From positions 8,847-72,846 of the forward strand of contig CAYRYB010000001.1 of assembly GCA_964428395.1 (NCBI GenBank): a stretch of DNA of 64,000 nt, written 5' to 3'. The stretch comes from an uncultured Methanosarcinales archaeon (lineage in GTDB: Archaea > Nanobdellota > Nanobdellia > Woesearchaeales > SKGA01). A program made the translations under genes and the position numbers. Each line of letters starts with the position of its first letter. The first letter of the stretch is position 1. A model generated the notes under the pieces. The model ran no database searches. It was not told where the DNA came from and saw nothing but the letters and a program-made list of their open reading frames with translations. Below, piece by piece: positions 8,219 to 28,793 of this stretch.

Positions 8219-8369
8219 AATACTTCAAATAAAGTGCAAGTGCTTAAAAAAATAGAGCACAAAAAATTCTTCCAAGAAAGTTAGTTCATTAAAAAAGACA
8301 TTTCGTTCTAGTAAAAGAAAGAAAAGGAGAGCAAGAAAAAGAACAAAAAAGAGTAAAAAAAGAAAGAAT

Positions 8370-8642: not shown

Positions 8643-8978
8643 GATACTTCCCCATCATATAGTATTAAAAAAACACAAACAAACCTATATATTAGAATCA
8701 TTAGTTCCTATTTAAATGTTTTGGTTTGTGTTTTGATTCCCGCTTGTCAAAAAAAACGAACAGCAATAACAATAAAAAAAGAGTAGTTCTCTTTAAATAT
8801 CTTTTGCAATCACGCTAAAAGAAAGACAAAAAAAACCCGTGCAAGGGCGACCATAAGAAACAAAAAAATGAACAATAAAAAAGAAACATATGGCAAAGAG
8901 ACGTAAAAAAAAGCAACAAAAATAAAACTAAAAAACAAAAGTATATATTAGTTTAAGATTCCTTCTCCTGTATATTCT

Positions 8979-9052
8979 ACTCCTGTGGTGTAGTCTGGAT
9001 AGCATTGGAGCTTGCGGAGCTTCAGACTCGGGTTCGAATCCCGGCAGGGGTA
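8979..9052 (+). tRNA. tRNA-Arg (GCG)
   Basis: Acceptor ACTCCTG/CAGGGGT, anticodon arm GGAGC-TTGCGGA-GCTTC, T arm TCGGG-TTCGAAT-CCCGG; CCA not encoded. Confidence 0.93.
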
Positions 9053-9081
9053 TATTTTGCCAAGAACAGCTAATCTTTAAT

Positions 9082-9140
9082 GCTAAAAAATGCGTCACTT
9101 TTCTCGCTTTAGTGCATCTTCAAGCAAGTGTTAAAACCAT
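9082..9140 (+). repeat. R2 repeat copy, directly upstream of R1 copy
   Basis: TAAAAAATGCGTCAC...AGTGCATCTTCAAGCAAGTG matches the reverse complement of 4902-4958. Confidence 0.85.
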
Positions 9141-9163
9141 TCTTAAGCAATACCCACGTGTAG

Positions 9164-9320
9164 GTTCTGTCCCAAAAGAAGATTTTTTAGCAGTATACTA
9201 CAAGCGGTGATATATTAAGATTCTCAAATCTCTTGTTAAGCATTACCTGAATCGTGCTTATGAGAACTTCACGCCAAGGCAGCAGCATACCTTGCTGTCT
9301 TTCTGGACAAGCCCTATATT
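9164..9320 (+). repeat. R1 structured repeat, copy upstream of argS (candidate ncRNA or MITE)
   Basis: Aligns with the reverse complements of 37462-37633 and 43625-43775; four stem-loops. Confidence 0.9.
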
Positions 9321-9393
9321 TAGAAATCATTATAAACAATAATCATCAATAAAAAAACTACAAGAAAAGCAAAACAAAAAGCAAAGAGGAAAA

Positions 9394-11124
9394 ATGGTAT
9401 TTACGAAGGAAATAGCAAAAAAAATTGCAAAAATCATATCTCAACCAGAAAATGTTATAGAAGAAATGCTTCAAGTTCCCAAAGAAAACAGTTTTGGAGA
9501 TCTTACATTCCCTTGTTTTTTATTTGCAAAGGAAATGAAAAAAAAACCTTCTGTGATTGCACAAAAGATTGCAAAAGAATTACAAATAGATTTTGCAACT
9601 GCAAAGGCAACAGGACCATATGTTAATATCACTATTTCTAACAATGCATTTATTTCACCAATTCTTCAAGATATTCTCACAAAAGAAAAACTACTGCAAA
9701 CAAACAATGCTTCTTTAGCAGGTGCTGTTACATTAATAGAATCACCAAGTCCAAATACCAATAAACCACTGCATCTTGGTCATTTGCGTAATATGTTTTT
9801 AGGAAGCACATTAAAAAACTTAAAAGAAGTACTTGGTCAAAAGTCTTTCATCGTTAATCTTGTCAATGATAGAGGAGTACACATTTGCAAGTCAATGTTA
9901 GCATATCAAAAATGGGGAAATAATCAAACACCCGAGCAGGCAGGAAAAAAAGGGGATCATTTTGTTGGTGATTGGTATGTAAGATTTAATCAAGAAGCAA
10001 AACAAAACGAGGAACTTGAACAGGAAGCACAAGACATGCTAGTACAATGGGAACAAGGAAACAAAGAAGTTATTGCGCTTTGGAAAAAAATGAATGAGTG
10101 GACGTATCAGGGATTTCAACAAACGTATAATCTTGTCAATTTTCATATTGATAAGAACTATTACGAAAGCGAGATTTACAAGAAGGGAAAAGAAATTATT
10201 TTAGAAGGCGTTAAAAAAAATATTTTCTACGAAGATAAAACAGGCGCAGTTGTTGTTGATTTAACAAATAAAAAACTTGATAAGAAAATTCTTCTCAGAA
10301 AAGATAAAACCGCAGTGTATATTACTCAAGATATCTTCCTTGCCAAACAACGCTTTGATGATTATCAGTTTAAAGAGCTTATCTATGTAGTTGGTAATGA
10401 ACAAGAATATCATTTCAAAGTACTTTTTGAAATTTTCAAAAAATTAGAATATCCTTTCGCGCAGAATTGTCATCATTTTTCCTATGGTATGATTGAGCTT
10501 CCTGATGGAAAAATGAAGAGTCGCGAAGGAAACGTGGTAGATATTGATGAGTTACTAGAGCAAACAACAAACCTAGCCAGAAGTGAGGTAAAAGAACGCT
10601 TTACAAACATAGATGAAAATGAAGTAAACAATCGTGCAAAAATTATTGCGCAAGGAGCTATTCGCTTCTTTTTTCTCAAATTTGACCCTGCAAGAAATTT
10701 TGTTTTTCATCCAAAAGAAAGTCTTTCATTTGAAGGCGAAACAGGACCGTACGTACAATATACTCATGCACGCATCGCATCCATTCTAAGAAAGAGCGAG
10801 AAAAATCAGAGTGCATCGACACCAAACACGCAAGGTAAAACGTCCTTTGATTTGTTAGACAATGCAGAAGAAAAAAAGATAGCTAGCATTCTCTATTCTT
10901 TTTCGGGTGTTGTAAAAGAAGCCGCTGAAAAACTCAAACCCAATCTTGTATGTAATTATTTGCTCACTCTTTGTCAATCATTTAACAAGTATTACGGAAA
11001 GTATAAAATAATTCAGGAGAATAAAAGTTTGCAAGCAGACAGAATTGCTCTTATTACTGCAGTTAATAAGGTTATCAAAGAAGGTCTTTTGCTATTGGGA
11101 ATCACCGCTCCTGAAAGAATGTAA
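9394..11124 (+). CDS. argS: Arginine--tRNA ligase
   Basis: FGDLTFPCF, SPNTNKPLHLGHLRN (HIGH-like), KMKSREG, FEGETGPYVQYTHARIASI, APERM C-terminus. Confidence 0.97.
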   Translation: MVFTKEIAKKIAKIISQPENVIEEMLQVPKENSFGDLTFPCFLFAKEMKKKPSVIAQKIAKELQIDFATAKATGPYVNITISNNAFISPILQDILTKEKLLQTNNASLAGAVTLIESPSPNTNKPLHLGHLRNMFLGSTLKNLKEVLGQKSFIVNLVNDRGVHICKSMLAYQKWGNNQTPEQAGKKGDHFVGDWYVRFNQEAKQNEELEQEAQDMLVQWEQGNKEVIALWKKMNEWTYQGFQQTYNLVNFHIDKNYYESEIYKKGKEIILEGVKKNIFYEDKTGAVVVDLTNKKLDKKILLRKDKTAVYITQDIFLAKQRFDDYQFKELIYVVGNEQEYHFKVLFEIFKKLEYPFAQNCHHFSYGMIELPDGKMKSREGNVVDIDELLEQTTNLARSEVKERFTNIDENEVNNRAKIIAQGAIRFFFLKFDPARNFVFHPKESLSFEGETGPYVQYTHARIASILRKSEKNQSASTPNTQGKTSFDLLDNAEEKKIASILYSFSGVVKEAAEKLKPNLVCNYLLTLCQSFNKYYGKYKIIQENKSLQADRIALITAVNKVIKEGLLLLGITAPERM

Positions 11125-11238
11125 TTTTTCTTCAAAAAATTTCATTAAAGAAAATGTAAAGGTAATAGAAGATAATACATAAACAAAGACAAAGAAGAAA
11201 CAAGAAAAGACAACAAAAAAATAAAAAGACAAAAAAGT

Positions 11239-11631
11239 TTATTCTAAATTCTCGTTAGTAACTTTTCCGCCACCACGATAAATTTGTGCAAAGCTTGGCG
11301 TTACAACAATATAGTCATCTCCAAAGCCAGCGATGTCTCCATCAATTGCTTCGCATGTCTTTTTTAATTTATTAATAGAACGTTTTAGTTCTAGTAAGTC
11401 TTTTTCTTTTAATGGCTTAATGTTAATAAGAGCTATAGTGTAGCTTTCTCGAAGCGCATCTAGTATCTCTCGCACGTCAGAGAAATCCGTTATCTCAAAT
11501 GGTCGCACAATAACTTTTTGATCAGGTTCGTGCGTACCAGAGTTTGCATCAAGTTCCACAAAGTCCTCTGTTTCCATATGATCGTCCTTATCAAATTGCT
11601 TTTCCTTTTTTCTAAAGAATCGTTTTATCAT
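11239..11631 (-). CDS. sepF: Cell division protein SepF
   Basis: DVREILDALRE...IALINIKPL...KLKKTCEAIDGDIAG....IVVTP; GGAGGT SD. Confidence 0.88.
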   Translation of the reverse strand: MIKRFFRKKEKQFDKDDHMETEDFVELDANSGTHEPDQKVIVRPFEITDFSDVREILDALRESYTIALINIKPLKEKDLLELKRSINKLKKTCEAIDGDIAGFGDDYIVVTPSFAQIYRGGGKVTNENLE

Positions 11632-11770
11632 CCTAATTAACCTCCATCAACAACAGCGTCATCCATAAAGGCAACGCTCTCACCCTTTTCGTTACGGAAA
11701 ATGAATAACAAGATATACTCTTTCTCAATTTATAAATGTTTTGATATTGTGACGTTATAGCATAAGAAAA

Positions 11771-11854
11771 CATGCTACGCTTAAAACAGAGTTCTACTAA
11801 GCATAAGTCTTACAGAAAGGAAGTATCAAAAAACTTGAAAATTTCAATAAGCCA
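11771..11854 (-). repeat. Degenerate partial R1 copy between sepF and radC
   Basis: CTACGCTT-N8-GTTCTACTAAGCA and TATCAAAAAACTTGAAAATTTCAATAAGCCA match, in order, CTACGCTT-N8-GTTCTATTAAGCA and TATCAAGAATTTGAGAATCTCAATATGTCA of the 43625-43775 copy. Confidence 0.65.
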
Positions 11855-11974
11855 TTTCAACACATACTATTCAACCTATAAATGTTAAGTCAAAAACGTT
11901 CAAATAGATTGTTCTGTACTTTTTTCGGAAAATACTAAGAAATTCTTTTAAATAAGTCAGATTTTAGTTTAAAA

Positions 11975-12634
11975 ATGCGCATTAAAGATATCTCTTTGGA
12001 TGATAGACCCAGAGAAAGAATGAAAAAGCAAGGAGCATCAGTACTTTCAGATGCAGAACTATTAGCAGTTATTCTGCAAAAGGGAACTAGAGAAGAAAAC
12101 GTCATTGATATGTCACATAGACTTATTTCTAAGTATGGCATTGATAAATTATCATCTTGTTCCTTAAAAGAATTAGAAGAGATTAAAGGTATTGGCAAAG
12201 CTAAAGCATCTCAAATACTTGCATTATTTGAATTCAATACAAGACATAATTTGGCTAAGCAAAACGGAAAACCAATAAGATCAGCAAAGGATGTTTTTGA
12301 TTTTTGTTCTCTTAAATTCTCAGGAGTAGATAGAGAACAATTTATGATATTGCATTTAGATACTCGTAATAGGGTGATTAAAGATGAAGTTGTTTCAGTC
12401 GGCACTTTAAACAGTTCTCTAATTCATCCTAGAGAGGTTTTCAAGTCAGCAATAAAAGAAAGTGCAAACGCAGTCATTTTAGTTCATAACCATCCTTCTG
12501 GCGATCCAGAGCCTTCGCAGGAAGATAAAAAAATAACAAACACATTACGTAAAGCAGGAGAATTGTTAGGGATAAACGTACTCGATCATATTATTATTGG
12601 GAATGAAAGATACTATAGTTTTATTGATAATTAA
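11975..12634 (+). CDS. radC: RadC family JAB-domain protein
   Basis: RPRERM, LSDAELLAVIL, GIGKAKA (HhH), HPREVFK, HNHPSGDPEPSQED, VLDHIIIG. Confidence 0.95.
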   Translation: MRIKDISLDDRPRERMKKQGASVLSDAELLAVILQKGTREENVIDMSHRLISKYGIDKLSSCSLKELEEIKGIGKAKASQILALFEFNTRHNLAKQNGKPIRSAKDVFDFCSLKFSGVDREQFMILHLDTRNRVIKDEVVSVGTLNSSLIHPREVFKSAIKESANAVILVHNHPSGDPEPSQEDKKITNTLRKAGELLGINVLDHIIIGNERYYSFIDN

Positions 12635-15600
12635 GGCTTTTTCTTTTTTTCATAGTTTCTTCTTTTTTCTGCAACAGCCATAATTGGAGGGTTATCAATT
12701 ATGTACTGATTTTTATTGTCTTCTTTATTTGTCTCGGACCATTTATCTGATAATACTTCTGCTTGTTCTAGTACGAGGTCTGTAGCCATTAAGGTTTTAT
12801 CTGGTGGATAACCATATTTTTTGAGAAGTCTTTTTACAATAACCCTAAGTTTTGCCCTGACTGTTTCTCTTAGTTTCCAGTCAATAGAGGTATTCTTTTT
12901 CACTATTTCTGTCATTTCTCGAGCTATTTTTTTTAATACTTCATCCCCGAGAATTTCTTTTGCACTTTCATTGTCTGCTAAGGCGTCATAAAATGCTATT
13001 TCTTCATCAGATAAACCAAGTTCTTCTCCTCTCGTATGTGCTTCACGAATATTCTTTGCTAAGTCTATGAGTTCTGCAATAACTTGTGCTGAGTCTATAC
13101 TTCTATTTTGATATTTGAGTATTGCTTCTTCAAGCATTTTTGAGAACTTCTTATTTTCAATTTTATTAGTTTTGAACCTTGTTCTTATTTCATCGTTGAG
13201 GATTTTCTTTAAGGTCTCAAATGCAAGGTTCTTGTATTCCATATTTTCAAATGTTTCTAAGAATTTATCTGAAAGTATTGATAGTTCTGGTCTTTGAATG
13301 TTTAATTCTTTAAAAACATCTATTTCTCCTTCTGCTTCAACAGCTTTTGAAACTAATTGTTTGATGACACTATCTGAAAGTCCTTTTGAAAGTCCTCCTT
13401 CTTTTGTTTCTGTTTTCATCAATGACCTTGAGATTGATTGGAATAAAGCTGCGTCTTCTCTGATTCCTTTTGCTTCTTCTGAGGTAATTGCAAGGTCTAA
13501 AGCTAACATTAATGCTTTTACATTTTTAACGAATCTTTTCTTTCCATCTTCTAAGCCTAAAATATGATTTTCTATTTGAAAGAAAATATCTACTCGTTTC
13601 TTTGTGCTTTTTGTTTTGAAATAATCTTTGTAATTATATCCAAAGAGCATATCTTTAACTATCTCATATTTTTCTTTTAGTATTGCGATTGCTTGGTCTC
13701 CATAACTTAAAGGATCATCTTTTCCTGCGGTTTTTGTGTATATAGTGACTGCTTTTCTTAATTCATCTGCTATTCCTATAAAATCAATGACTAATCCTGC
13801 TTCTTTATCTTTGTAGACTCTGTTTACTCTTGCTATGGTTTGCATGAGATTATGATGCTTTATTATTTTATCAATGTAAATGGTGTTAAGACAAGGAACA
13901 TCAAATCCTGTGAGCCACATATCTCTTACTATTGCTAATTTAAAGTCTGAATTCGGGTCTTTGAATATTTCTGCTAGTTTTTTTCTCTTTTCTTTGTTTC
14001 TTGTGTGCTCAACGTATTCTTTTCCGTCAGATGCTGCACCAGTCATGATTACTTTCATTATTCCTTTATCATCGTCTTTATGATAATATTCAGGTCTTAA
14101 CTTTTTAATTTCGTTATGTAAAGCGATTGCTATTCGTCTACTCATTACTACAACCATTGCTTTGCCGTTATTGAGTAATTGTCGCATTTCGAAGTGATTA
14201 ATAATTGATTTTGCAAGTTGTCTGATTCTTGGTTCGCTTCCTGCTAATGCTTCTATGGTTGACCATTTTCTTTTTTCTTCTTCAACTAAGTTGTTTTCTT
14301 CTTGTTCTGTATATTCATATATGAGGTCATCAATTTGCTTGAAGATTTCCTCGTTTTTCCCTAGTTTTATAAGTTTAGCATCATAAATTATTTTTACGAC
14401 TCGGTGGTCTTCTAACGCTTGGTGCATATCATAAATATCTATATAATCACCAAATACTTCCCTTGTACTTTTATCAGAGAATTCTATAGGTGTTCCTGTA
14501 AAGCCAATGAATGATGCGTTAGGAAGTGCATCCCGTAAGTATTTTGCAAGTCCATATTTTATAATATTTTTTTGTAATTTTGCTTTGAAACCATATTGTG
14601 TTCTGTGAGCTTCATCTGTTATTACAAGGATGTTATCTCTTCTTGATAATTCTTCAAACGTTGAACCATCCCTTGCTAAGAATTTTTGAATGGTGGTGAA
14701 GATTATTCCTCCTGAAGAAACTTTTAATGCAGTTTTTAGTTCTGTTTGCGATTTTATTTGTTTAGGTGATTCTTGAAATAATGTTAAGGAGGAGAAAGTG
14801 TCATATAATTGATTATCAAGGTCATTTCTATCTGTAAGAACGACTATTGTTGGATTCTTGAGTTTTGGATCCTTATTCATCAAAGCAGTGTAAAAACCCA
14901 TTGTAAAGCTTTTTCCAGAACCTTGCGTGTGCCAGACAACACCAATTTTTTTATTCTTGCCTATTGCTTTGTAGGTCCTTTGAATTGCTTTTTTTGTAGC
15001 ATTGTATTGATGATAACCTGCTAAGATTTTTGCATCTTTTGTGAAAGTCGTAAAGTTCTTTGCAATGTCTAAAATGGTTTCTCTATCACACATACCTCTT
15101 AACGTAGTTTCCAGAGAAGTTGTTTTTTGAAATGCTCCATTAACAGTTCTCCAAGGAAGAAACCATTCATAAGGAGAAGTTATTGTTCCTGCTTTTGTGT
15201 CTTTTCCATCAGAGATTATCTCAAACGTATTGTAATTGAACAATGTGGGAATATCATTATGATATGTTTGCAATTGTTTAAATGCGGTATCAATAGTTGC
15301 TTTGGGATTAGTTGGACTTTTCAGTTCGATGGTAACGATAGGAAGTCCATTGATGAATAGTATGATATCAGGTCTTCGATTCTTCTTATTCTCAATGATG
15401 GTGAATTGATTGATTGCCAAGAACTCATTTTGTTTAGGTTTTTCAAAGTTGAATAGTTGAACAAGATCTCCTTTGATTCTTCCTTTGAAACGATATTCTA
15501 CTTCAACGCCAGTTGTAAGAAACTTTTGGAAAACCTTATTGTTTTTAAAGAGTTTATGACTTGTTGAACGAAGAACTTTCTTTAAAGCTTCTTCTTTAGC

Positions 15601-15876: not shown

Positions 15877-16560
15877 TTGTATCATGTTATGGAAGCTGTC
15901 ACTAAGAACGGGTTGTTTAACGAATCGTGGTTTTCTGGTTTTCGAACCGTCATTGAGAAGTCATTTATAAAGGTTAATTACAAAGTAAACGCAGTAGTTA
16001 TTCTTCAAAAAATAAAAACTCTAGATATTGATAAAGATAAAATCGTTCTTAAAATCAAAAATCTTTCTGAAGATGAATGGTCTTACAAGTATTTAGTATC
16101 AACTCTGAAAGAATTAGATGAGATAATGAAAATTTCTGATGATTTTCTGAGAAAACACGCAGTTCAAGAATTGCAAGGTCGCGATTTAACAGAAGTTAAA
16201 TGGGAAATTATGAAAGGTATGCTGACTGATTACGCTAAATTCACTAAAGAATTTTATGATTCACTCAAATATTCTCAGAACTCTAAATTAGGAAGAAAAA
16301 GATATTTACTTATGATAGAACTAATGAATGCACTAAAAAAAATTTATGATGCTTCAAAACAACTCATCGATAAATTTTCACAAAAGAAATATAATAAAAC
16401 TTCTTTTAAGAAGTTTATGAGTACGCGAATAGCTTTAGAACACTTATTACTAAGAGTTTTTTATATTCTGCTAAATATTGACAAAGAAGAGAATTTTATT
16501 AAGTATAGAGACGTTCTTTCTAGAGAAATAATAGAATATACTGTCCGTCAAGCAAAATGA
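15877..16560 (+). CDS. Helical hypothetical protein, coupled to PIN gene
   Basis: 227-aa ORF; ATGA overlap with the next gene. Confidence 0.75.
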   Translation: MYHVMEAVTKNGLFNESWFSGFRTVIEKSFIKVNYKVNAVVILQKIKTLDIDKDKIVLKIKNLSEDEWSYKYLVSTLKELDEIMKISDDFLRKHAVQELQGRDLTEVKWEIMKGMLTDYAKFTKEFYDSLKYSQNSKLGRKRYLLMIELMNALKKIYDASKQLIDKFSQKKYNKTSFKKFMSTRIALEHLLLRVFYILLNIDKEENFIKYRDVLSREIIEYTVRQAK

Positions 16561-17255
16561 TTTCTAACGATGTTAATGTGATATTTGCTTTTCTAGATAT
16601 AAAACATAAATTCCATATTCAGTCAAGTCTGTTCGTAGTGAAAAACCAAAGAAGAAAACTCGTTGTGTTGGCAAACGTTATGAAGAGTTTTCTTAAGACA
16701 TATAAAAATTATATTGTGCAAGTAGGAGCCATAATAGAACACCAAGTTGTATTCTGTAAAGAAGAAAGAAAAAAATCACCTATAAAAAACCCTTCAACCA
16801 CACATATAGCAATATTGGTAAATGCAGGGATAAATAACGAATTAAAAACTCTTAGTTCAATGCCAAATTATTCTTTCGATGCGTTATTAAGATTTAAAGA
16901 CTTGTTATTAACCGATTTCTCAATTCCACAACTTTATTTTGAGGAAAACGCAATAGGAGAGTTTAGAGAAAAATTCATAGACCGATCGGAAAAATTCTCT
17001 CTCGACTCTATAAACGAATTCGTAACAAAGTTCAACCAAAAAAGAATAATGAAACAAAATGATTATAAAAACTATGAAAACTTTCTCTCCGATTTAAAAT
17101 CAATGAAAGATTATGAAGACAGGAGAATTTGTGCAGAATTATTCTGCTTCGGCGAAGAGAAGAAAGCAATTCAGTTTCTGACTTTTGATAACACTTTTAA
17201 ACAATATTTAAGGAAATTCGGCTCCAAACATAATGTTAAAGTATTATCTGTTTAA
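16557..17255 (+). CDS. Divergent PIN-domain (RNase-like) protein
   Basis: N-terminal DVNVIF and C-terminal EDRRICAE...FLTFD match the PIN acidic-residue layout. Confidence 0.65.
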   Translation: MISNDVNVIFAFLDIKHKFHIQSSLFVVKNQRRKLVVLANVMKSFLKTYKNYIVQVGAIIEHQVVFCKEERKKSPIKNPSTTHIAILVNAGINNELKTLSSMPNYSFDALLRFKDLLLTDFSIPQLYFEENAIGEFREKFIDRSEKFSLDSINEFVTKFNQKRIMKQNDYKNYENFLSDLKSMKDYEDRRICAELFCFGEEKKAIQFLTFDNTFKQYLRKFGSKHNVKVLSV

Positions 17256-17291: not shown

Positions 17292-17555
17292 TCATAAATT
17301 CTTCACCTTAAATATTTTTTTAACATCATTCCTATTAAGAATCAAAAAGAAATAAGAACCAACGATTAAATAAATACAAATCTTTAATGCTTGTTCTGAA
17401 AAGAAACCATAAGTTCCTATTGTAAATTTATAGAATAATAATAAATGAAATGCTCCAAAAAGAAGAATGATCCATAAAACTGTTGATAATACACCATACA
17501 AAATAGATAAAATTATTTCTCCAAAGGTTGCTTTAAGAGGGGTTTTTTTAGTCAT
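17292..17555 (-). CDS. Small two-TM membrane protein
   Basis: Start reassigned to ATG 17555 (MTKKTP, ATGA overlap, GGAGGA SD); two hydrophobic helices. Confidence 0.7.
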   Translation of the reverse strand: MTKKTPLKATFGEIILSILYGVLSTVLWIILLFGAFHLLLFYKFTIGTYGFFSEQALKICIYLIVGSYFFLILNRNDVKKIFKVKNL

Positions 17556-17725
17556 TGGAAACTCCTCCAATCTAATTCTTGACCACAATTCGGACAAGTT
17601 TTATTTGCACTGGTAACAGGATAATTACATCTAGGACACTTTCCTTTCTTCTTTCTACTCAAAAGCCACCATAGTAGCGCAAGACCACCAATAGTCAATA
17701 ATGTATTTTTATCTTCTTGTTTCAT
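17552..17725 (-). CDS. 57-aa membrane-anchored zinc-ribbon microprotein (missed by ORF track)
   Basis: MKQEDKNTLLTIGGLALLWWLLSRKKKGKCPRCNYPVTSANKTCPNCGQELDWRSFQ*; fits exactly between its neighbours. Confidence 0.85.
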   Translation of the reverse strand: MKQEDKNTLLTIGGLALLWWLLSRKKKGKCPRCNYPVTSANKTCPNCGQELDWRSFQ

Positions 17726-17728
17726 TTT

Positions 17729-18097
17729 TCAAAGTAATTTTAGTTTTTTAGCTTGTTTTACAAATTTCTTTTGTTTCTCAATATATAAAACAGGATTTTG
17801 TTGTATTGGTTCATAAATCCTTTCAATCTCGTGTTGAGAAGAAACTTCTAAGCCGCATTGACTACAATAATAATTTACTGTTCCAACAGGTGTATGAAAA
17901 AATGATTCCATAGTGAATGCTTTTGTTGTTTCATTAAGAGTGACTTTGCAATGAGGACAAATGTTCTTTAATTGATTTATTTTTATTTGTCTTCTATTTT
18001 CTAGAAACTTATTTAGATCAAAGTTTAAGCTTATTTTAATAGCTATAAATCCTATTACGCCCGCAATTATTAGTTTAATAATTTCTTCAGTTGTCAT
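17729..18097 (-). CDS. Membrane-anchored zinc-ribbon protein
   Basis: N-terminal TM helix, then CPHC...CSQC; ATGA overlap with hsdS. Confidence 0.8.
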   Translation of the reverse strand: MTTEEIIKLIIAGVIGFIAIKISLNFDLNKFLENRRQIKINQLKNICPHCKVTLNETTKAFTMESFFHTPVGTVNYYCSQCGLEVSSQHEIERIYEPIQQNPVLYIEKQKKFVKQAKKLKLL

Positions 18098-19360: not shown

Positions 19361-20140
19361 TTAAAATCTCATTCTCGATTCTATGATGTCCTTTTTTTTC
19401 GTTATTGCGTTGATTATGAATTGTTCAAAATCTTCTTTAGGATAATTGGAATTTTCCACTTGAGTGCCATGCATTACTGCTAAGCTTCGTGCCACACCTG
19501 AAACCCAGAGAGGGGTTTGAGTATAATATCTTGATAAGAATGAATATAATAGCTTTAGTTGTGTTAGATGTTCTTTAAATGAATCTTCTGATGTTGTGCT
19601 CAAGTTCGTATCTAATCTAATATTAATTATTTTTTTTAGTTCTTCATTTGTAGCTTCTTCAGTATTTGTTTTTCCTCTATAATACACTCTGTTTTTGTGT
19701 AATGTTTCTCCTGATGATTTCAAGGATAAAAAAGGAAGATGTTCTGGAATACTTTCAACCATCAAAACTTGAAATTTTTTGTTTGTGATTGATTTCCACT
19801 CAACAGATGAATCATAGTCAAAATCGTGTATTGAATAAGTTAACTCTGAAGGTATGTAATTTGTTTGTTGACTCTGGATAACTGTTTTATCCGTAAATTC
19901 TGTTAATCCTATTGGAATTAATGAACCATCTTGTTCTTCTTTAACACCTATTACTAAAACTCCTCCTCCTGCGTTGGCAAATCCTAGTATGTGTTTAGCA
20001 AGTTTATCTTTGTCCATCCACTTTTCCTTAAAATCAATGTGATTATACTCGCCAGTATTGTTTTTTAATAGTTCTCTGAATTTTGCACGATCAGGAGATT
20101 CGCAAAATTTTGCGAAATCCTCTTTTATTGTATTTACCAT
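19361..20140 (-). CDS. Schlafen/AlbA_2-domain protein
   Basis: EYNHIDFKE...LAKHILGFANAGGGVLVIGVKE and YYRG.TNTEEA. Confidence 0.85.
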   Translation of the reverse strand: MVNTIKEDFAKFCESPDRAKFRELLKNNTGEYNHIDFKEKWMDKDKLAKHILGFANAGGGVLVIGVKEEQDGSLIPIGLTEFTDKTVIQSQQTNYIPSELTYSIHDFDYDSSVEWKSITNKKFQVLMVESIPEHLPFLSLKSSGETLHKNRVYYRGKTNTEEATNEELKKIINIRLDTNLSTTSEDSFKEHLTQLKLLYSFLSRYYTQTPLWVSGVARSLAVMHGTQVENSNYPKEDFEQFIINAITKKKDIIESRMRF

Positions 20141-20151
20141 GTGTTTACCAT

Positions 20152-21267
20152 TTATTCATCTTCAGACATGCCTAACATATTTATTTGTAGGTCTTTAATT
20201 AGTCTTATTAGTTGATTCAATCCTACTTCGTTTTCTATTGCAGGTATTAATTTGATTAGTATTTGTTGCATTCTTTCTGCAAAGTCTTTTTTATTTAGCA
20301 TGTCAATAAAGTAATTTCCTTTTGTGATGTTATATTGTTCTTTTAGTTTGTCTTCTATTTCTTTTTCTTTTTTTTTGAGTTCTTGCTTTGTTGTCTCTGA
20401 GATTGTTATTGAATCCCACATAAATGATATCTTTATGTTATATACTCTGATTTGTTTTTTGCTCATCGAGACTAGCAGTTTACTTATTTTCTCTTTTTGT
20501 TCTTTTGATATTCTATCTTCAATCATATCAAGAACGAGCAATAGTGATAATAAATATGGTTGCGCAACTATTATTATTGGATGCTTGTTCTTTATTGTTT
20601 TTCTAAACCATCTTACTTCTGTGTCAGATATTGTTGGCAGGATTTTTTGTTTTGTTTCTTCCAGGTATTGGTAGTATTTTTCTACAAATGAGTTATAGTC
20701 TAGCGCTCCGTCTTTAAATATGATAAATGCACTCAAACCTGGAACTTTTACCCTAAATGCGTTTTCTTCTTTTAAGGATAATACGTAATCTGCAAAAATT
20801 GATGTATTTTTGATTTCTTTTTTTACTTTCGCAGGAGTTTTCTCTCCTGATTCTAATACATAATATGCGTTACCTTTGCTAATTAGTTTTTTTTCTATGT
20901 CTTCTATTAGGTGTATTCCTTTTTCATCTAATATTTCTAAAAATTTTGAAATAAGTGGGTTGTGTTTATCAATTAGTTTTTTTGTTATTTCTTTTGATTC
21001 TGTTTTGGTCATTTCTTGCTGAAGTTCCTTTTGTCCTTGTAGTTTATCTAATGTAATTGCCTGATTTTTTTTTGAGATTTTAGTTATTACTATCGATAAT
21101 AATATGGATATTAATGCATAAAATAAAATAAGTTTTCTTACTTTAATAAAATCTGTTGTTATTATCAAAGATAATATCATCACAACTACTAAACCTGCTA
21201 TTACTATATTCACTAAGTTTTTCCCAGCTAAGTTGTTTATTCCGTTTATTATTCTGTCGTGGTTCAT
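20152..21267 (-). CDS. Two-TM protein with large soluble domain of unknown function
   Basis: Two N-terminal hydrophobic helices, then ~300 aa soluble region. Confidence 0.75.
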   Translation of the reverse strand: MNHDRIINGINNLAGKNLVNIVIAGLVVVMILSLIITTDFIKVRKLILFYALISILLSIVITKISKKNQAITLDKLQGQKELQQEMTKTESKEITKKLIDKHNPLISKFLEILDEKGIHLIEDIEKKLISKGNAYYVLESGEKTPAKVKKEIKNTSIFADYVLSLKEENAFRVKVPGLSAFIIFKDGALDYNSFVEKYYQYLEETKQKILPTISDTEVRWFRKTIKNKHPIIIVAQPYLLSLLLVLDMIEDRISKEQKEKISKLLVSMSKKQIRVYNIKISFMWDSITISETTKQELKKKEKEIEDKLKEQYNITKGNYFIDMLNKKDFAERMQQILIKLIPAIENEVGLNQLIRLIKDLQINMLGMSEDE

Positions 21268-21665
21268 TTGTGAATTATTGATGTTGGTATATTTAGACGG
21301 TCTATTGTTTTATTAACGAATAATCCTGTTATAAACCCAGCAAAACCTTTTTTTGAATCTCTGTAGTTTGATTGTGCAATTCTAAATGCAAAATTAACTT
21401 CTGTTATTATGTGAGAAAACTCTTGAGAATGGTCTCTAAAAAAGTATGCGAATGAATATAATTCATGAACTAAATCTGAATGCATACTAACTATTTGGGA
21501 TGCTGTAAAGTTTTGTTTTTTTATTTCTTCTGCCCGTTTAAGCCATTGTTCTATGAATTTATTTCTATTGAAGTTTTTGACTCCTTGATTTGAGTTTGTA
21601 TTGTATGTTAATCCTTGAAATGTTATTATTCCGTTAGAACTTATTCTGATAGGTTCATTTTTCAT
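21264..21665 (-). CDS. Hypothetical protein
   Basis: GGTGA SD; ATGA overlap with the downstream membrane gene. Confidence 0.7.
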   Translation of the reverse strand: MKNEPIRISSNGIITFQGLTYNTNSNQGVKNFNRNKFIEQWLKRAEEIKKQNFTASQIVSMHSDLVHELYSFAYFFRDHSQEFSHIITEVNFAFRIAQSNYRDSKKGFAGFITGLFVNKTIDRLNIPTSIIHK

Positions 21666-21716: not shown

Positions 21717-22211
21717 TCATTGGGAACTATTTTCTTCACCTGATCCTTCTTGGTGGATTATTCTATTTCGCCAATTCCTTACTGATTCTAATGTGTCAAA
21801 TGTTTTATCTTCTGAATCAATACCAAAATCATCTAAATGGTTTTTTATATATTCTAAAGAGATCATCTTACCAAAATGCACTTTATCTGCATTAGTTAAA
21901 TCCGATATTTGTTTTATGCTTTCAAAGCTATCCACTTTGTGCACCACAAACCCTTTTTCTAAAACAAGAGCTTTTAGTAAGAATTCAAAACCTATTCCTA
22001 AATATACTTTATCAATATCATCGTCGAATTGCATTTCAAATATTGGTTTACTGACTGATTCAATTATCTTATTGAATTTCTTATTTATGCTATTGTGTCC
22101 TGATTTCACTACGAATCTAAATTCCCATTCATAAAGGTTATTTCTTATTCTAGCAACATCTGCTGGCGTATCGTAGTCAAAATATTTATCTCCTTGTTCT
22201 TGATATGTCAT
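21717..22211 (-). CDS. HEPN-like protein
   Basis: Helical protein with E.LLKA mid-region and C-terminal RNRIIH (R-X4-H). Confidence 0.65.
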   Translation of the reverse strand: MTYQEQGDKYFDYDTPADVARIRNNLYEWEFRFVVKSGHNSINKKFNKIIESVSKPIFEMQFDDDIDKVYLGIGFEFLLKALVLEKGFVVHKVDSFESIKQISDLTNADKVHFGKMISLEYIKNHLDDFGIDSEDKTFDTLESVRNWRNRIIHQEGSGEENSSQ

Positions 22212-22212
22212 C

Positions 22213-22294
22213 TTATTCTACCTTAAACCCAATCCCTTCAAGGTTCTTCTTGATTTCTTCGTCAAGTCTTGCTCCTTCTTTCATTTGTTTTGCA
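22213..22294 (-). pseudogene. Duplicated hsdM 3' end (82 bp; encodes [26 protein letters not shown])
   Basis: 78/82 identical to 23180-23261; the four differences are all synonymous. Confidence 0.92.
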
Positions 22295-22311
22295 CTTCCA
22301 TCATCATTTTT

Positions 22312-23178
22312 TTATTGAAGTTTCTCTAAGATTTTCACTGATTCTTTATTCATCTTTGAGAATGCAAACCATTTCTTACCTAAGTCTTTTAAAGATGCTC
22401 CAAGATGATAAACTTCTTTTTCATCAATTATCAAAAATCTATCATGACTTTTATTAAATTCTTTTAAAACAATTGGTTCATATTGCGAATTAAACTTTTT
22501 AACATCTAATTGTAATTGTTTAGAAATATTCTTAGTATATATTCTAACGGAAACGTTTTTATTTCTTTTAGAAAATAAAGTAAGAACCGACTCATCAATA
22601 TAATTATCAACTAATATTAATGAAGTTTTTACTTTTTTTACTAAATCTGAAACAAATTTATAAGCATCAAAAACTTGCCCATCATAAAAAATTCCTTGTT
22701 TTGGTTCATTATGTTCCAATGCTTTAAACAATTTATCAAATTTTTTGTCATGTTCCAACAGTTTCATTTCAGTTCTGTCTAACCTTTGAAAGATCTGAGC
22801 ATTATTCACTAAGAAGCGTCGCATTTTTACAAAAGCATCAATTATTTGAATACTTATCTCAATGGCTTTATCACTTCTCAAAACAGCAGAAAGCATCGAA
22901 ACTCCTTGTTCTGTAAAAACATGAGGCAAACTTGAAGAATGTTTAAGAGATTTCAACCGGTCACAATTTGTGACCAGTTCATTTTTCTCATTTTCAGTCA
23001 GTTTAAACATAAAATGCTCTGGAAATCTTTCAATATTTCTTTTTACAGCTTGATTCAATACTTTTGTAGAAACCCCATATAAAATAGCAATATCATAATC
23101 AACAATAACTTGAATATTTCTAATAGTAAAAATTCTATCTTTAATATTGTCCGTGGAAATAGTTATTGATTTATTCAT
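22312..23178 (-). CDS. ORF6N (KilA-N-like) DNA-binding domain fused to PLD-like nuclease domain
   Basis: LYGVSTKVLNQAVKRNIERFPEHFMF...FTEQGVSMLSAVLRS; C-terminal SHDRFLIID..VYHLGASLKD. Confidence 0.85.
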   Translation of the reverse strand: MNKSITISTDNIKDRIFTIRNIQVIVDYDIAILYGVSTKVLNQAVKRNIERFPEHFMFKLTENEKNELVTNCDRLKSLKHSSSLPHVFTEQGVSMLSAVLRSDKAIEISIQIIDAFVKMRRFLVNNAQIFQRLDRTEMKLLEHDKKFDKLFKALEHNEPKQGIFYDGQVFDAYKFVSDLVKKVKTSLILVDNYIDESVLTLFSKRNKNVSVRIYTKNISKQLQLDVKKFNSQYEPIVLKEFNKSHDRFLIIDEKEVYHLGASLKDLGKKWFAFSKMNKESVKILEKLQ

Positions 23179-23179
23179 A

Positions 23180-24685
23180 TTACTCTACCTTGAACCCAAT
23201 CCCCTCAAGGTTCTTCTTGATTTCTTCATCAAGTCTTGCTCCTTCTTTCATTTGTTTTGCAAGTTCTGTTGTGAGTTTTTTCATCTTGTCTTCGAATGGT
23301 ATCCCGTCATCTTCCTCTTCTTTTGTCCCTACATATCTTCCGGGTGTTAGGATTCCTTGATGTTTTGTTAGTATTTCTTCTTTAGTTACTGATTTTGCAA
23401 ATCCTAATTCATCAACATTCTCTCCTTTCTGCCATTTGTGATAGGCGTCTGCAATCTTTGCTATATCTTCATCATTTAATGCTCTATTTCTTCGTGAGAT
23501 CATTTCTCCCATTTTTCGGGCATCAATGAAAAGGACTTCGTTTTCTCGTTTTCCTTTCTCGCGTCTAAAAAACCATAGACAAGCAGGAATCATAGTGTTA
23601 TAAAACAATTGAGATGGTAATGCAATCATACAGTCCACAAGGCCATTTTCTACTAAATTCTTCCGTATATCTCCTTCTCCTGAGGTATTTGATGACATTG
23701 AACCATTCGCTAAGACTGTTCCCATTATGCCATTTGGTGCTAAGTGGTAGAGCATGTGTTGTATCCATGCAAAGTTTGCGTTTCCTGTTGGTGGCACTCC
23801 ATATCGCCAACGAGGATCTTCTCGAAGTCTTTCTCCTCCCCAGTCAGATATGTTGAAGGGTGGATTTGCAAGAATAAAGTTTGCCTTCAAATCTTTGTGT
23901 TGGTCGTTGTGAAAGCTATCTCCAAGTTTTATATCAGCATCAATACTTCTTATTGCCATATTCATTTTAGCTAGTTTCCATGTAGTAGGATTTGATTCTT
24001 GACCGAAAATAGAAACATCATTTATTCTTCCTTGATGTTCTTCTATGAACTTTTCAGATTGAACAAACATTCCACCGCTTCCACAACAAGGGTCGTAAAC
24101 TCTTCCTTTGAATGGTTGGATCATTTCAACTAATAATCTTACAATTGAACGTGGCGTGTAGAATTGTCCTCCTTTTTTTCCTTCTGCATCTGCAAATTCC
24201 CCAAGGAAATATTCATATACTCTGCCTAAAATATCTTTTTTCTTTGACTCTTTATCTCCAAGACCTATTGTTCCAATTAAATCAATAAGTTCTCCTAATC
24301 TTCTTTTGTCAAGTGCAGGTCTTGCGTAATTTTTTGGAAGAACCCCTTTCAAAGAATGATTTTCTTTTTCTATCGCTTCCATAGCGTCATCAATGATTTT
24401 TCCAATTTCAGGTTGTTTAGCGTGGTCTTGTAAGTATAACCATCTCGCTTTTTTAGGAACCCAGAATATTCTTTCAGCAAGGTATTCATCCTTGTCCTCT
24501 GGATCAGCAAACCCCTCAGGGTCCTCCCGAAGCTTCTTATGAAGCGCTTCAAAACTATCAGAGATATACTTTAGGAATATTAAACCAAGAACAACATGCT
24601 TGTATTCTGCTGCATCCATATTGTTACGCATTTTATCTGCGGCAGCCCACAATTTCTGCTCAAAGCCTAAATTAGTCATCTTCAT
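23180..24685 (-). CDS. hsdM: Type I R-M methyltransferase subunit M
   Basis: [30 protein letters not shown] (N6-adenine MTase). Confidence 0.97.
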
Positions 24686-26677: not shown

Positions 26678-28783
26678 TTATAATCCTAAATTTTCAAGAA
26701 CTTTTTCTTTGTCAAAAGGTTCTAAATCATCATACGTTTGACCAGTACCTAAAAAGAGAATTGGTTTACCCGTAACATAACTTACGCTTATTGCAGCTCC
26801 ACCTTTATCATCTATATCTGCTTTAGAAAGTATAATGCCATCAATACCTACTGCTTCATTAAAAGCTACTGCTTGCTCAACGCAATCGTTACCTGTTATT
26901 GCTTCTCCCACAAAAATATTAAGATCTGGTTTGCTTATGCGCACAACTTTTTTTAGTTCATCCATTAAATTGCTGTTTGATTGTAGTCTCCCTGCAGTAT
27001 CAATTAAAACAACGTCAAGTCCTTTTGCATTCGCATGCTTTACAGCATCAAACGCAACTGCTGCAGGGTCTGCATTATAATCATGTTTAATGAGTTTCAC
27101 ACCTAATTTTGTTGTATGCTCTTCAAGTTGCTGTATGGCTGCTGCGCGAAAAGTATCTGCAGCTGCAACAACCATTGATAAATTGTTCTTTTGAAAATAA
27201 TGAATAAGTTTTGCTAATGTTGTTGTTTTTCCACTTCCATTCACACCAATCATGCAGATAATAAATGGTTTTTTTGTTCGTATTTTTTCAAGAATATCAA
27301 ATGTTGGAATAGTAAGTATTTCTTCTAAGGATTTTTTTAATGTGTCCATAATAACTTCTTGAACACTTTTTCGAGTAATATTTTCTTGTGTAAGCTGTGC
27401 TCGCAAGTCTTGTTTTATTTTTTCTATAACTTGAACAGCAACATTGTTCTCTAAAAGAGCCAATTCAAAGTCCCAAAAAAGTTCTTCAAACTTTTCATCA
27501 GTAAGTTGAAATTTTACAATGCTTTCTTTGATTTTTTTAAGAAGTCCTTTTTTCTGTTTCGTTGCATCTTTTGTGTCTTCTACAAGAAGGTCTGCATGAA
27601 CTGCTTCTTTCTTCTCCTCTAAAGATATTGATTGTTCTGGTTTTTGTTCGGCTTCCTGTTCGGATTCGCCTTCTGATTCTCCTTCTGATTCTCCTTCTGA
27701 TTCTCCTTCTGATTCTCCTTCTGATTTTGTTGCATCTTGCTTTGACAATGCAACAATAGGTTCTGTATCTTTTTTTTGTAAGGATTCATCTTCTTGTTGT
27801 GTTGCTGTTTTTTGCGTCGGTATTGTTTGTGTTGGCGTTTCTGGTGTTGGAATTATTTGAGTTTGTTCTGAAGATTTTTTCCCAAAAATCTTTCCAAAAA
27901 ATCCTTTTTTCTTTTCCTCAACAACATCATTTTCTTCTTGAACTGTTTGTTCTTGTGTTGATTGTTCTTGTGTTAATTGTTCTTTAGTTTTTTCTTGTTC
28001 TGACTTTTCAGGTTCTTCTTTCTGTTCTTCAGATTCTTTTTGCTCTGACCCTTCAGACTCTTCATCTTCTGTGTTTTCTTTTTCTTCTTGCTCTTCTTTC
28101 TGTTCTTCAGGCTCTTCTTGCTCTTCAGGCTCTTCGTCTTTTGTCTTTTCTTTTTTTTCTGAGTCTTCTTTCGGTTTTTCAGGTTTTTCTTGCTTTTCTT
28201 CAGGTTCTTTTTCTTCTAATTCTTCTTTTGCCTCTTGCACTACTTGTTCTTTAGTTTCTTCTTGCTCTGGTTCTTCTTTCTGTTCTTCAGATTCTTCTTG
28301 TTCTTCAGATTCTTCTTGCTCTGGTTCTTCTTTTTGTTCTTCAGGTTCTTTTTCCTCAGGTTCTTCTTGCTCTGGTTCTTCTTTTTGTTCTTCAGGTTCT
28401 TTTTGCTCCAATTCTTCTTTTTTCGTTTCTGTTTCAAGCGTTTCTGACTCTTCTGTTTGTTTTATTTCATCTACTGCTTGCTTATCAACATCTACTGTCA
28501 AAGAAGCATTTTTTTCTGAAGAATCTTCTAAAGGTTCCTTTAAAGATTCCTTTGAAGGTTCTTCTAAAGATTTCTCTGGAAGTTGTTCTAAAGATTCTTC
28601 TTGCTTTTCTTTTGTTGTTGAAACAGAAACTTTTTTCTTTGGTTCGTTCTTTGTTTCAGGAGAAGGTATTTGCTCTGCTTGCAGTGTTGTCTCATCTTCA
28701 ACAATTTCTTCTGCTTCTTCTTCTGCTGACTTTGAAAACTTCGAAACAACGTCCTTTATTTTATTTTTAAGAAATTTAAACAA
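26678..28783 (-). CDS. ftsY: SRP receptor FtsY with long acidic repetitive N-terminus
   Basis: GVNGSGKTTT, DTFRAAA, DTAGR, SKADIDDKGG, FLGTGQTYDDL. Confidence 0.96.
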   Translation of the reverse strand: MFKFLKNKIKDVVSKFSKSAEEEAEEIVEDETTLQAEQIPSPETKNEPKKKVSVSTTKEKQEESLEQLPEKSLEEPSKESLKEPLEDSSEKNASLTVDVDKQAVDEIKQTEESETLETETKKEELEQKEPEEQKEEPEQEEPEEKEPEEQKEEPEQEESEEQEESEEQKEEPEQEETKEQVVQEAKEELEEKEPEEKQEKPEKPKEDSEKKEKTKDEEPEEQEEPEEQKEEQEEKENTEDEESEGSEQKESEEQKEEPEKSEQEKTKEQLTQEQSTQEQTVQEENDVVEEKKKGFFGKIFGKKSSEQTQIIPTPETPTQTIPTQKTATQQEDESLQKKDTEPIVALSKQDATKSEGESEGESEGESEGESEGESEQEAEQKPEQSISLEEKKEAVHADLLVEDTKDATKQKKGLLKKIKESIVKFQLTDEKFEELFWDFELALLENNVAVQVIEKIKQDLRAQLTQENITRKSVQEVIMDTLKKSLEEILTIPTFDILEKIRTKKPFIICMIGVNGSGKTTTLAKLIHYFQKNNLSMVVAAADTFRAAAIQQLEEHTTKLGVKLIKHDYNADPAAVAFDAVKHANAKGLDVVLIDTAGRLQSNSNLMDELKKVVRISKPDLNIFVGEAITGNDCVEQAVAFNEAVGIDGIILSKADIDDKGGAAISVSYVTGKPILFLGTGQTYDDLEPFDKEKVLENLGL
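27669..27727. repeat. 12-bp tandem repeat (~5 copies, EGES) inside ftsY
   Basis: CCTTCTGATTCT repeated. Confidence 0.9.
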
Positions 28784-28793
28784 GTAATCTCAC

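Follow-up and report, generated by a model that had tools for sequence, protein, structure and literature searches.

Duplicated hsdM ends around an ORF6N-PLD gene in an archaeal Type I restriction-modification operon: a probable insertion scar of the long-target-duplication class

Introduction

Insertion with long target duplication is a form of gene gain that is reportedly dealt with in Nobusato et al. 2000 (Gene 259:99). A probable archaeal example is described here, in a 64,000-nt stretch of DNA (the window) from an uncultured Methanosarcinales archaeon (assembly GCA_964428395.1, contig CAYRYB010000001.1, positions 8,847 to 72,846 of the forward strand). Within the window a gene for a protein with an ORF6N domain and a PLD-fold domain, referred to as the ORF6N-PLD gene, is found between two copies of the 3' end of hsdM, the methylase subunit gene of a Type I restriction-modification (R-M) operon. 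Insertions of the long-target-duplication class are characterised by direct repeats of more than 30 bp that vary in length and often span a translation start or stop, and by the absence of mobility genes (Furuta, Abe and Kobayashi 2010, NAR 38:2428, PMC2853133). The described cases involve Type I–IV R-M genes, solitary mcrA and orphan methylases in several bacterial phyla, no archaeal case having passed the screen, and the class is enriched near restriction-related genes. The cycle proposed for them starts with insertion, which is followed by amplification via the repeats and then by release (PMC2853133).

The structure in the window corresponds to that of the class, with repeats longer than 30 bp, an insert of less than 20 kb that lacks a mobility gene, and a repeat that is not high-copy, since only two copies are present within the 64 kb. 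The cargo is different, in that the published screen was built on R or M genes whereas the inserted gene in the window belongs to a candidate defence family, PDC-S05, although solitary mcrA and orphan M genes do appear in the published set. The published class thus comprises bacterial R-M systems or R/M genes, whereas in the window the host is an archaeon and a non-R-M cargo is placed inside a Type I operon. Moreover, it is hsdM itself whose 3' end has served as the duplicated target, unlike in the published cases.

Two further systems invite comparison. The position of the cargo, between hsdM and hsdS, resembles that of the defence genes embedded in Type I operons, such as PrrC in EcoprrI (Payne et al., preprint 10.1101/2024.01.29.577857); in the part of that preprint covered here, the terms duplication, recombination and hsdM lead to nothing on how genes become embedded. 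Searches of the literature on ORF6N and on hsdM remnants returned nothing on tail scars. There is also some likeness to integron cassettes, where promoterless single genes accumulate at one junction and rely for their expression on signals upstream, with direct repeats flanking the unit. Unlike the integron and integrase att systems, however, the window has no integrase, attC-like structure or conserved core, and the repeats copy whichever gene end happens to lie upstream.

The repeat at the hsdM junction

The two copies of the direct repeat (Table 1) are 87 nt long, identical at 82 of the 87 positions (94%) and 967 nt apart. They form by far the longest repeat within 17–26 kb of the window, where the repeat search found this single family, and comparison of the copies by blastn gives E = 7e-35. 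Each contains the final 26 codons of hsdM, the TAA stop, one spacer base and ATGA, and so includes the start codon of the gene behind it, which is that of the ORF6N-PLD gene (23178) in the one copy and that of a gene for a 164-aa protein (22211) in the other. The ORF6N-PLD gene starts one base after the TAA of hsdM. The second copy, an orphan, begins 17 nt past the ORF6N-PLD stop and in frame with it (stop-KNDDGSAKQ...KVE-stop), and a tblastn search with HsdM against the whole window identified it as the sole orphan fragment. A AAGGTAGA stretch is located 7–12 nt ahead of both ATGs. The 967-nt unit consists of one open reading frame (ORF), with ORF6N and PLD-fold domains only, and contains no recombinase.

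Table 1. Features of the hsdM region and of the Type I locus (positions in the window).
Feature	Positions	Strand	Evidence
hsdM, Type I methylase subunit, 501 aa	23180..24685	minus	Pfam N6_Mtase 1.2e-111, HsdM_N 2.8e-28
Repeat copy 1, functional hsdM tail + TAA + T + ATGA	23175..23261	minus	Repeat search, alignment
ORF6N-PLD cargo gene, 288 aa	22312..23178	minus	Pfam ORF6N 1e-30, PADLOC PDC-S05 4.5e-120, AlphaFold2/Foldseek
17-nt spacer, ORF6N-PLD stop codon to orphan tail	22295..22311	minus	Sequence
Repeat copy 2, orphan hsdM tail: 26 codons + TAA + G + ATGA	22208..22294	minus	Repeat search, tblastn
Displaced gene, 164 aa	21717..22211	minus	ORF list; PADLOC PDC-S49 weak, E = 2.6e-4
Further cargo: 133-aa ORF, 371-aa membrane/coiled-coil ORF, 259-aa Schlafen/AlbA_2 protein	19361..21665	minus	ORFs; Pfam SLFN_AlbA_2 8.6e-14
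hsdS, specificity subunit, 421 aa	18094..19359	minus	Pfam Methylase_S 1.7e-30, two stretches
hsdR, restriction subunit, 1073 aa	12631..15852	minus	Pfam HSDR_N, SWI2_SNF2, ResIII, T1RH-like_C

The five differences between the copies comprise four in coding sequence (GAT/GAC, GAG/GAA, TTC/TTT and GAG/GAA), all of them synonymous, and a T/G difference in the 1-nt spacer after the TAA, which leaves identical blocks of 33, 23, 11, 8, 3 and 4 nt. An initial annotation, made by reading the DNA alone, had described 82-nt repeats (22213–22294 and 23180–23261) that encode the same peptide; these are contained in the 87-nt repeat, both on the minus strand, the four codon differences are exactly as it gave them, and translation bears out its placing of the orphan in frame behind the ORF6N-PLD stop. 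It had also heard in the DDG ahead of the orphan an echo of an EDDG further up in hsdM. The letters are there, but at the level of chance, as 4359 of 5000 shuffled versions of the 17-nt spacer resemble hsdM just as closely, and a longer orphan with an internal deletion was rejected since the similarity of the spacer to hsdM is not above chance. The spacer is presumed either to mark an illegitimate junction or to be where the inserted DNA ends on its 3' side.

In the Logan assembly of run SRR8443420 a unitig (L207) begins exactly at the first base of the orphan copy, carries all of the orphan-specific variants and runs on into the 164-aa gene. A break at this point is understandable because a true repeat is where a de Bruijn graph should branch, the first identical block here being 33 nt.

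Which junction is older

Only one homologue of the 164-aa protein (P0122, 46% identical) is present in a collection of 5.8 billion proteins. On the contig that encodes it (L210) the C-terminal half of hsdM is 73% identical to that in the window, with a near-identical tail, and the ATG of the 164-aa homologue is found two bases past the end of hsdM with no ORF6N gene in between. In L081, whose hsdM (86% identical) is the closest in the metagenome collection, hsdM ends in the same way, and yet another gene, for a small membrane protein, comes next. The shared end of hsdM has the form ...ATTGGGTTTAAGGTAGAR-stop-N1-2-ATG, and the gene behind it changes between the window, L210 and L081. Because L210 joins a like tail directly to the 164-aa homologue without an ORF6N gene, the orphan tail together with the 164-aa gene appears to be the resident, older junction, and the functional tail together with the ORF6N-PLD gene the newcomer's side. 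Exact-protein look-ups of hsdM, ORF6N-PLD and the 164-aa protein for a close empty site gave just assemblies from the same sample and the one Logan unitig.

Recurrence of the scar in other loci

The same kind of scar is found in unrelated loci and with unrelated cargo. A DNA scan of 80 genome loci encoding relatives of the ORF6N-PLD protein, in which the sequence upstream of each start was sought again within 400 nt after the stop, returned flanking repeats for 7 of 76 testable ORF6N-PLD genes; of the other genes in these loci, 7 of 467 had them (Fisher p = 0.0012, odds ratio 6.7). The repeats in the seven ORF6N-PLD loci (L013, L019, L044, L047, L061, L069 and L075) are 37–121 nt long and 84–96% identical, and a wider downstream window adds L022, L040, L059 and L068. 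At the protein level the C-terminal tail of the upstream gene recurs in 5 of 59 cases past the ORF6N-PLD stop, against an expectation of 0.3, and the five include a weaker hsdM remnant in L010. A survey of 87 hsdM loci with at least 600 nt of downstream sequence revealed orphan hsdM tails in eight (seven distinct, as L135 and L136 are the same), located 850–1350 nt past the real stop. The comparable tail remnants in related loci on which the initial annotation had staked its reading are therefore present both behind hsdM and around ORF6N-PLD genes.

The cargo in the hsdM survey was identified by eye from translations and not from profile scans. An ORF6N-PLD gene precedes the orphan hsdM tail in the window, L019 and L010. 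The cargo of L120 is a pair of genes for proteins of 140 and 99 aa that look HEPN/nucleotidyltransferase-like, and that of L138 a 376-aa gene that looks like a PD-(D/E)xK-type nuclease; L135/L136 and L145 carry truncated N-termini that appear RhuM-like, plus other genes, and a vapBC-like pair is also present among the survey cargo. In every case the orphan adjoins the gene that comes next (often hsdS), with stop and start arranged as in the native junction. The repeats range from 29 to 162 nt, with a sequence that differs locus by locus and no shared boundary motif seen, and on its 3' side the cargo is closely bounded, the median distance past the stop being about 20 nt.

The most complex arrangement is nested. 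In L061 (860–2620) the ORF6N-PLD gene (1442–2338) is located between 45-nt remnants of an hsdM tail (1392–1433 and 2390–2434), with no hsdM present. Around these is an outer duplication of about 165 nt, made up of the end of a vapC-like gene and intergenic DNA, in which 868–926 and 1248–1357 match 2452–2509 and 2502–2611, the upstream outer copy being broken by a 320-nt GC-rich segment (927–1247). The nesting of the repeats therefore implies at least two successive events with the same gene, in which the first repeat pair travelled along.

Several other loci show related features. L010 has two scars in one Type I locus (7975–14116): a weak orphan tail of hsdM (KRKLEILGYGE), some 19 nt past the ORF6N-PLD stop, and a 78-nt hsdS end including ATGA, whose copies, 97% identical, bracket a gene for a 1178-aa protein (10494–14030), the second copy starting 9 nt after the stop of that gene. 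This hsdS duplication had been counted as a 'control' positive. In L135 (3284–4544; the same in L136) and L145 (3116–3532) the RhuM-like truncated N-termini come directly after hsdM and are followed by other cargo and then by the orphan hsdM fragment, a layout that suggests repeated turnover and erosion of cargo at the hsdM junction. The last 35 nt of hsdM in L129 (5188–5336), including the stop, are perfectly repeated 81 nt downstream with no cargo between, which may be what is left after cargo loss, or else a very short insertion. A further DNA-level scan picked up this copy and also a 23-nt match in L139, behind a gene that looks KilA-N-like by eye, and the protein screen has neither of them.

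Gene-end scars are also recruited into new reading frames. In L145 (3786–4169) the orphan hsdM tail is fused in frame as the C-terminus of what appears by eye to be a vapC/PIN-like toxin gene (...LDQRLKANLAKVGFGG-stop), and in L139 (9380–9688) it forms the C-terminus of a 102-aa Cys-rich ORF (...ERIKKINENLEKVGFDL-stop). Tandem or closely spaced pairs of divergent ORF6N-PLD paralogues are found in L011, L021, L044, L068 and the 517-kb JGI contig of P0006, and in L068 a 70-nt repeat brackets the pair; such pairs look like the stacking of successive insertions rather than recent tandem duplication. In L074 (9161–9874) a gene for a 190-aa MT-A70-like methyltransferase (DPPW motif, by eye) is enclosed by a 35-nt direct repeat (91%), and this insertion resembles the 'orphan M' insertions of Furuta et al. 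2010 (PMC2853133).

The ORF6N-PLD protein

The 288-aa protein consists of an ORF6N DNA-binding domain, a linker helix and a PLD-fold domain. The first of these is recognised by Pfam (ORF6N, PF10543; residues 15–99) at 106.3 bits against a cut-off of 27.8. The AlphaFold2 model has a mean pLDDT of 74.6, with about 76–91 in the C-terminal domain, and when compared by Foldseek with the PDB it matches members of the PLD superfamily (vaccinia F13, Zucchini, NucT, PLD3, FAM83 and MITD1) with E values of 2e-5 to 2e-3. The probability is 1.00 for F13, Zucchini, NucT, PLD3 and FAM83, and the target-normalised TM-scores for the small nucleases are 0.49–0.55. The best whole-chain match is TrmBL2, a winged-helix and PLD-like chromatin protein (E = 8e-6), which on the model would share with the window protein the layout of DNA-binding domain, long helix and PLD fold. 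At the level of fold the label ORF6N-PLD, given in the initial annotation, is therefore appropriate. A sequence search of the PDB with the protein gave no match with E < 0.8.

Across 26 aligned sequences H245-x-R247-x4-D252 and G260-A-S262-x-K264 are invariant, the window protein reading H245-D-R247-F-L-I-I-D252 and G260-A-S262-L-K264. The predicted domain resembles the PLD nucleases Nuc/NucT, Zucchini and BfiI in having one PLD-fold domain per chain, with the motif H-x-R-x4-D-x7-G-A-S-x-K in place of the canonical H-x-K-x4-D-x6-G-S-x-N. The His and Asp are kept, Arg stands in for the Lys and the spacing has gained one residue. The motif is HKD-like, an HxR variant, and the domain a candidate nuclease. 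Kinship of the C-terminal part with the C-terminal domain of HsdR, raised by tblastn (E = 0.009–0.03), was rejected as hhalign gave a probability of 0.4%.

PADLOC assigns the protein to the candidate defence family PDC-S05 (PDLC04869, E = 4.5e-120, residues 4–287). One member of this family, with a RhuM domain, is reported to reduce the plating of T7 and T5 about 1000-fold (preprint 10.1101/2024.09.26.614923). The window protein and the tested member belong to different subfamilies, with an N-terminal ORF6N domain in the former and a RhuM domain in the latter. The window protein is related to RhuM: residues 119–287, covering the linker and the PLD fold, are about 50% identical to annotated RhuM family proteins from Bacteroidales plasmids by tblastn. 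Pfam returned no RhuM match for the protein.

More than 8000 homologues exist. Genome loci with relatives of 53–65% identity come from Bacteroidota, Campylobacterota, Desulfobacterota, Lentisphaerota, Woesearchaeota, Methanosarcinales and others, and the family is rare on viral contigs (38 loci). The gene upstream encodes N6_Mtase/HsdM in 16 of 72 loci, a topoisomerase in eight, an Eco57I-type methylase in eight and Cas3 in three, and the gene downstream encodes HsdS in 13 of 66. The ORF6N-PLD gene mostly has the same orientation as the gene upstream and is closely coupled with it; in many loci the gap measures -3 to about 25 nt.

Origin of the two tails

From the silent differences the initial annotation had concluded that the two tails evolved as the coding ends of sister hsdM alleles. 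This can be compared with a model of duplication and decay, in which the orphan of an in-situ duplication drifts neutrally while the working copy takes silent changes only. Under this model the probability that all four changes are synonymous is 0.010–0.040 for transition/transversion ratios of 1–10, and 0.055 with transitions only. In a two-allele composite, which is a sub-variant of insertion with target duplication and does not exclude it, an incoming, related hsdM allele with the ORF6N-PLD gene behind it would have recombined into the resident locus, the right-hand join falling 82 nt before the resident hsdM stop, and the tails would have diverged as working ends in separate lineages. Such an origin is a tentative possibility that falls somewhat short of even chances.

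Apart from the low probabilities above, it is favoured by L135/L136, where the orphan is an hsdM 3' fragment of about 100 codons with some 93% identity over the first 63 nt and about 55% protein identity over the last 35 codons; two different alleles are required in that case because the diverged last 35 codons still look like an HsdM tail. It is also favoured by L022, where 15 synonymous and 3 non-synonymous differences separate copies that are both in open frames. Against it, the sample in the window is four substitutions only, and the other loci lean the other way: the synonymous and non-synonymous differences number one and two in L019, none and two in L010, three and four in L120, none and two in L069, and none and one (a new stop) in L075, which sums to 4 against 11 when the window and L022 are set aside. 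The outgroups polarise the four sites inconsistently, as L081 and L210 disagree at two of them and each copy has at least one derived change, and a mosaic test of hsdM against L081 gave a flat 72–89% identity per 90 nt, which is uninformative and provides no mosaic signal. No hsdM-ORF6N-PLD donor with a like tail was found, and the pattern would also result if the working hsdM had later undergone allelic conversion. In-situ target duplication with a few substitutions, or with allelic conversion, is thus a possible alternative origin of the tails, and what remains of the sister-allele claim is suggestive only.

How the gene may have been inserted

The repeat is probably the scar of a gene insertion of the long-target-duplication class. 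In the ancestral order, within an archaeal Type I R-M operon, the stop of hsdM would have been followed after 1–2 nt by the ATG of the 164-aa gene, and a promoterless single ORF6N-PLD gene would have been placed precisely at this stop/start junction to give two copies of the final 82–87 nt of hsdM. The upstream copy would complete a working hsdM and lend the newcomer a ribosome-binding context and an ATG that formerly belonged to the next gene. The downstream orphan would keep the original junction, such that the displaced gene could retain its translational coupling. The most likely route is one in which the hsdM side paired by homology and the cargo was joined at its 3' end illegitimately or through microhomology, as a break was repaired or foreign DNA taken up, and without a site-specific recombinase.

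This route resembles homology-facilitated illegitimate recombination, in which homology, here that of hsdM, anchors one side only, the far end is joined illegitimately and no dedicated recombinase is needed, and such a combination would explain the tight but variable 3' boundary of the cargo. Homology-facilitated illegitimate recombination usually deletes recipient DNA, whereas the window has a duplication instead. The process is said to operate in natural transformation, in work attributed to de Vries and Wackernagel in 2002 and to Prudhomme et al. in 2002. The suggestion in the initial annotation that genes are acquired at the hsdM end without a recombinase is broadly supported by the orphan being a genuine hsdM 3' end, by the lack of a recombinase in the insert and by the recurring scars. 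Removal of the cargo by recombination between the copies could occur in principle, at a rate that would be low because the longest identical block is 33 nt.

A number of points weigh against an insertion with target duplication. The repeat-bearing loci all come from metagenome assemblies, with no repeat in about 10 isolate genomes or in the 4 finished plasmids checked. The empty-site relatives are only distant (HsdM 73–86% identical; 164-aa protein 46% identical, in L210), so that the case for insertion would rest on synteny and not on a clean pair with and without the gene. No donor was found, the nearest ORF6N-PLD homologues (69–73% identical) occurring in unrelated contexts and not beside hsdM, and the four synonymous differences fit a simple in-situ duplication with neutral decay poorly. 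Finally, for the mechanism of the class the literature offers no more than a suspicion of DNA breakage (PMC2853133).

A more ambitious interpretation is that the duplicated ends are the working parts of an integrase-free cassette system, with the PLD-fold protein perhaps supplying the initiating break, although this is considered unlikely. If it were true, homologous recombination would loop the cargo out with one tail and re-insert it behind similar tails, so stacking and swapping genes. It would also account for the lone ORF6N-PLD/RhuM genes in the Type I operons of many bacterial and archaeal phyla, and L061, where a newer outer duplication encloses older remnants of an hsdM tail, would be a unit caught moving.

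Alternative explanations

The ORF6N-PLD gene might instead spread by its own activity, either as a DNA-binding PLD nuclease that makes the break for its insertion, a role already proposed for restriction genes, or as a free-standing homing endonuclease. The 6.7-fold enrichment of long flanking duplications around the family would fit this, as would the more than 8000 homologues, which at 53–73% identity across many bacterial and archaeal phyla imply heavy horizontal transfer of a lone gene, the stacks of divergent paralogues in L011, L021, L044 and L068, the transport of hsdM-tail remnants from a former site into a second, outer duplication in L061, and a PLD fold with a strictly conserved H-x-R...D...G-A-S-x-K motif. 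DNA breakage is, moreover, the suspected common factor of the class (Furuta et al., PMC2853133). Yet the same scars surround cargo that is not read as nucleases (the HEPN/nucleotidyltransferase-like and vapBC-like pairs and the 1178-aa gene), and in the hsdM loci an orphan comes after ORF6N-PLD in 3 of about 12 cases and after other cargo in about 4–5 of about 45, which is not clearly different. No common motif is seen at the duplication boundaries, the best whole-protein structural match, TrmBL2, is a non-catalytic DNA-binding protein, the HKD Lys is replaced by Arg and the family is rare on viral contigs. With respect to homing, the gene is found in many unrelated contexts and there are no close allele pairs among the loci; the PLD fold is not known to be a homing-nuclease family. 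Self-directed spread is quite improbable.

The remaining explanations are weaker still. Since the source is a metagenome, the full arrangement is confined to assemblies from the same sample and the Logan unitig breaks at the repeat, the contig could have joined two strain variants, hsdM-ORF6N and hsdM-164aa. A de Bruijn path from the ORF6N-PLD 3' flank to the tail would, however, need k-mers over the unique junction ...GGAAG/TGCAAAAC, the five differing positions are consistently kept apart between the copies, the same architecture, with other cargo too, turns up in numerous independent assemblies, and there are documented members of the class in finished genomes of bacteria (PMC2853133); an assembly artefact is thus very unlikely. 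The repeats could also be viewed as attL and attR of an element that was integrated by a trans-acting integrase and that brought a replacement 3' end for its target gene, as direct repeats of tens of nt are left behind by integrative elements whose targets are gene or tRNA 3' ends (PMC2853133). This is extremely improbable, given that the length and sequence of the repeat differ at each locus and that the mismatches are spread over the repeat without an identical core. Moreover, no integrase or transposase was found in Pfam and PADLOC scans of the 12–30 kb region, which includes the 967-nt unit, nor among the 25 of 56 Pfam families listed for the remainder of the window, and no tRNA or Rfam element was detected in 17–26 kb. 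That the orphan is functional, with bypass of the ORF6N-PLD TAA adding an HsdM-like C-terminal tail, finds some encouragement in its frame, which stays open for 32 codons, and in its conserved peptide. This idea is scarcely credible, as the orphans of L019 and L075 are out of frame (two of the four ORF6N loci checked are in frame, about the level of chance), that of L075 has gained a stop codon, no readthrough signal is visible and, with five changes, the orphan is too young for its conservation to inform. A template and variable repeat pair of a diversity-generating retroelement was rejected on the grounds that Pfam and PADLOC returned no reverse transcriptase and that the mismatches (C/T, A/G, T/C, A/G and G/T) are not adenine-specific.

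The Type I locus and its surroundings

The window is a piece of an AT-rich archaeal chromosome, as is evident from its genes for eIF-6, prefoldin, the ribosomal proteins L15e, S6e and L21e, and PAC2, and from its GC content of 33.8%. All three Type I subunits, hsdM, hsdS and hsdR, are present by Pfam, in the order hsdM, five cargo genes, hsdS, two small ORFs, two ORFs on the opposite strand and hsdR (Table 1). The ORF6N-PLD gene has the lowest GC content of the locus (26.6%, compared with 37.8% for hsdM), a value that is not diagnostic since all of the cargo genes are low. The 164-aa protein ends in ...RNWRNRIIHQEG, where RNRIIH resembles, by eye only, the Rx4H motif of HEPN domains.

Between hsdS and hsdR there are four ORFs without Pfam matches (15877–17255, plus strand, and 17292–18097, minus strand), and hsdR is therefore detached from the hsdM-hsdS operon. 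The two plus-strand ORFs encode proteins of 227 and 232 aa, the second with a faint VapC/PIN match (E = 0.007), and the two small ORFs a 122-aa Cys-rich protein and a 101-aa membrane protein. A gene for a RadC-like JAB-domain protein (11975–12634, plus strand) converges on the 3' end of hsdR and overlaps its stop by 4 nt. On the other side of the locus a 701-aa ORF (26678–28783, minus strand) was read, by eye only, as an FtsY/SRP-receptor homologue; it has an N-terminal extension of about 400 residues that is extremely acidic and repetitive (EEQKEEPEQEE and GESEGESE runs), opposite which a long, spurious Ser-rich ORF is found (28071–28787).

Implications

The window represents an archaeal case, with a non-R-M cargo, of a known class of insertion and not a new kind of element, and it extends this class from bacterial R-M genes to an archaeon and to a non-R-M defence cargo. 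Many new anti-phage genes have been found through their embedding in R-M and other defence operons, while the route by which promoterless single genes arrive there has hardly been addressed. Orphan tails are physical traces of such embedding, found in about 9% of the hsdM loci surveyed and about 9% of the ORF6N-PLD genes, with one nested case, and they bear on how defence genes become embedded in Type I operons. They record insertion exactly at stop/start junctions, without a recombinase encoded by the element, in a manner that would keep the newcomer and the displaced gene alike translationally coupled. A second, orphan 3' end of the upstream gene also provides a simple signature by which recent acquisitions can be found and dated.

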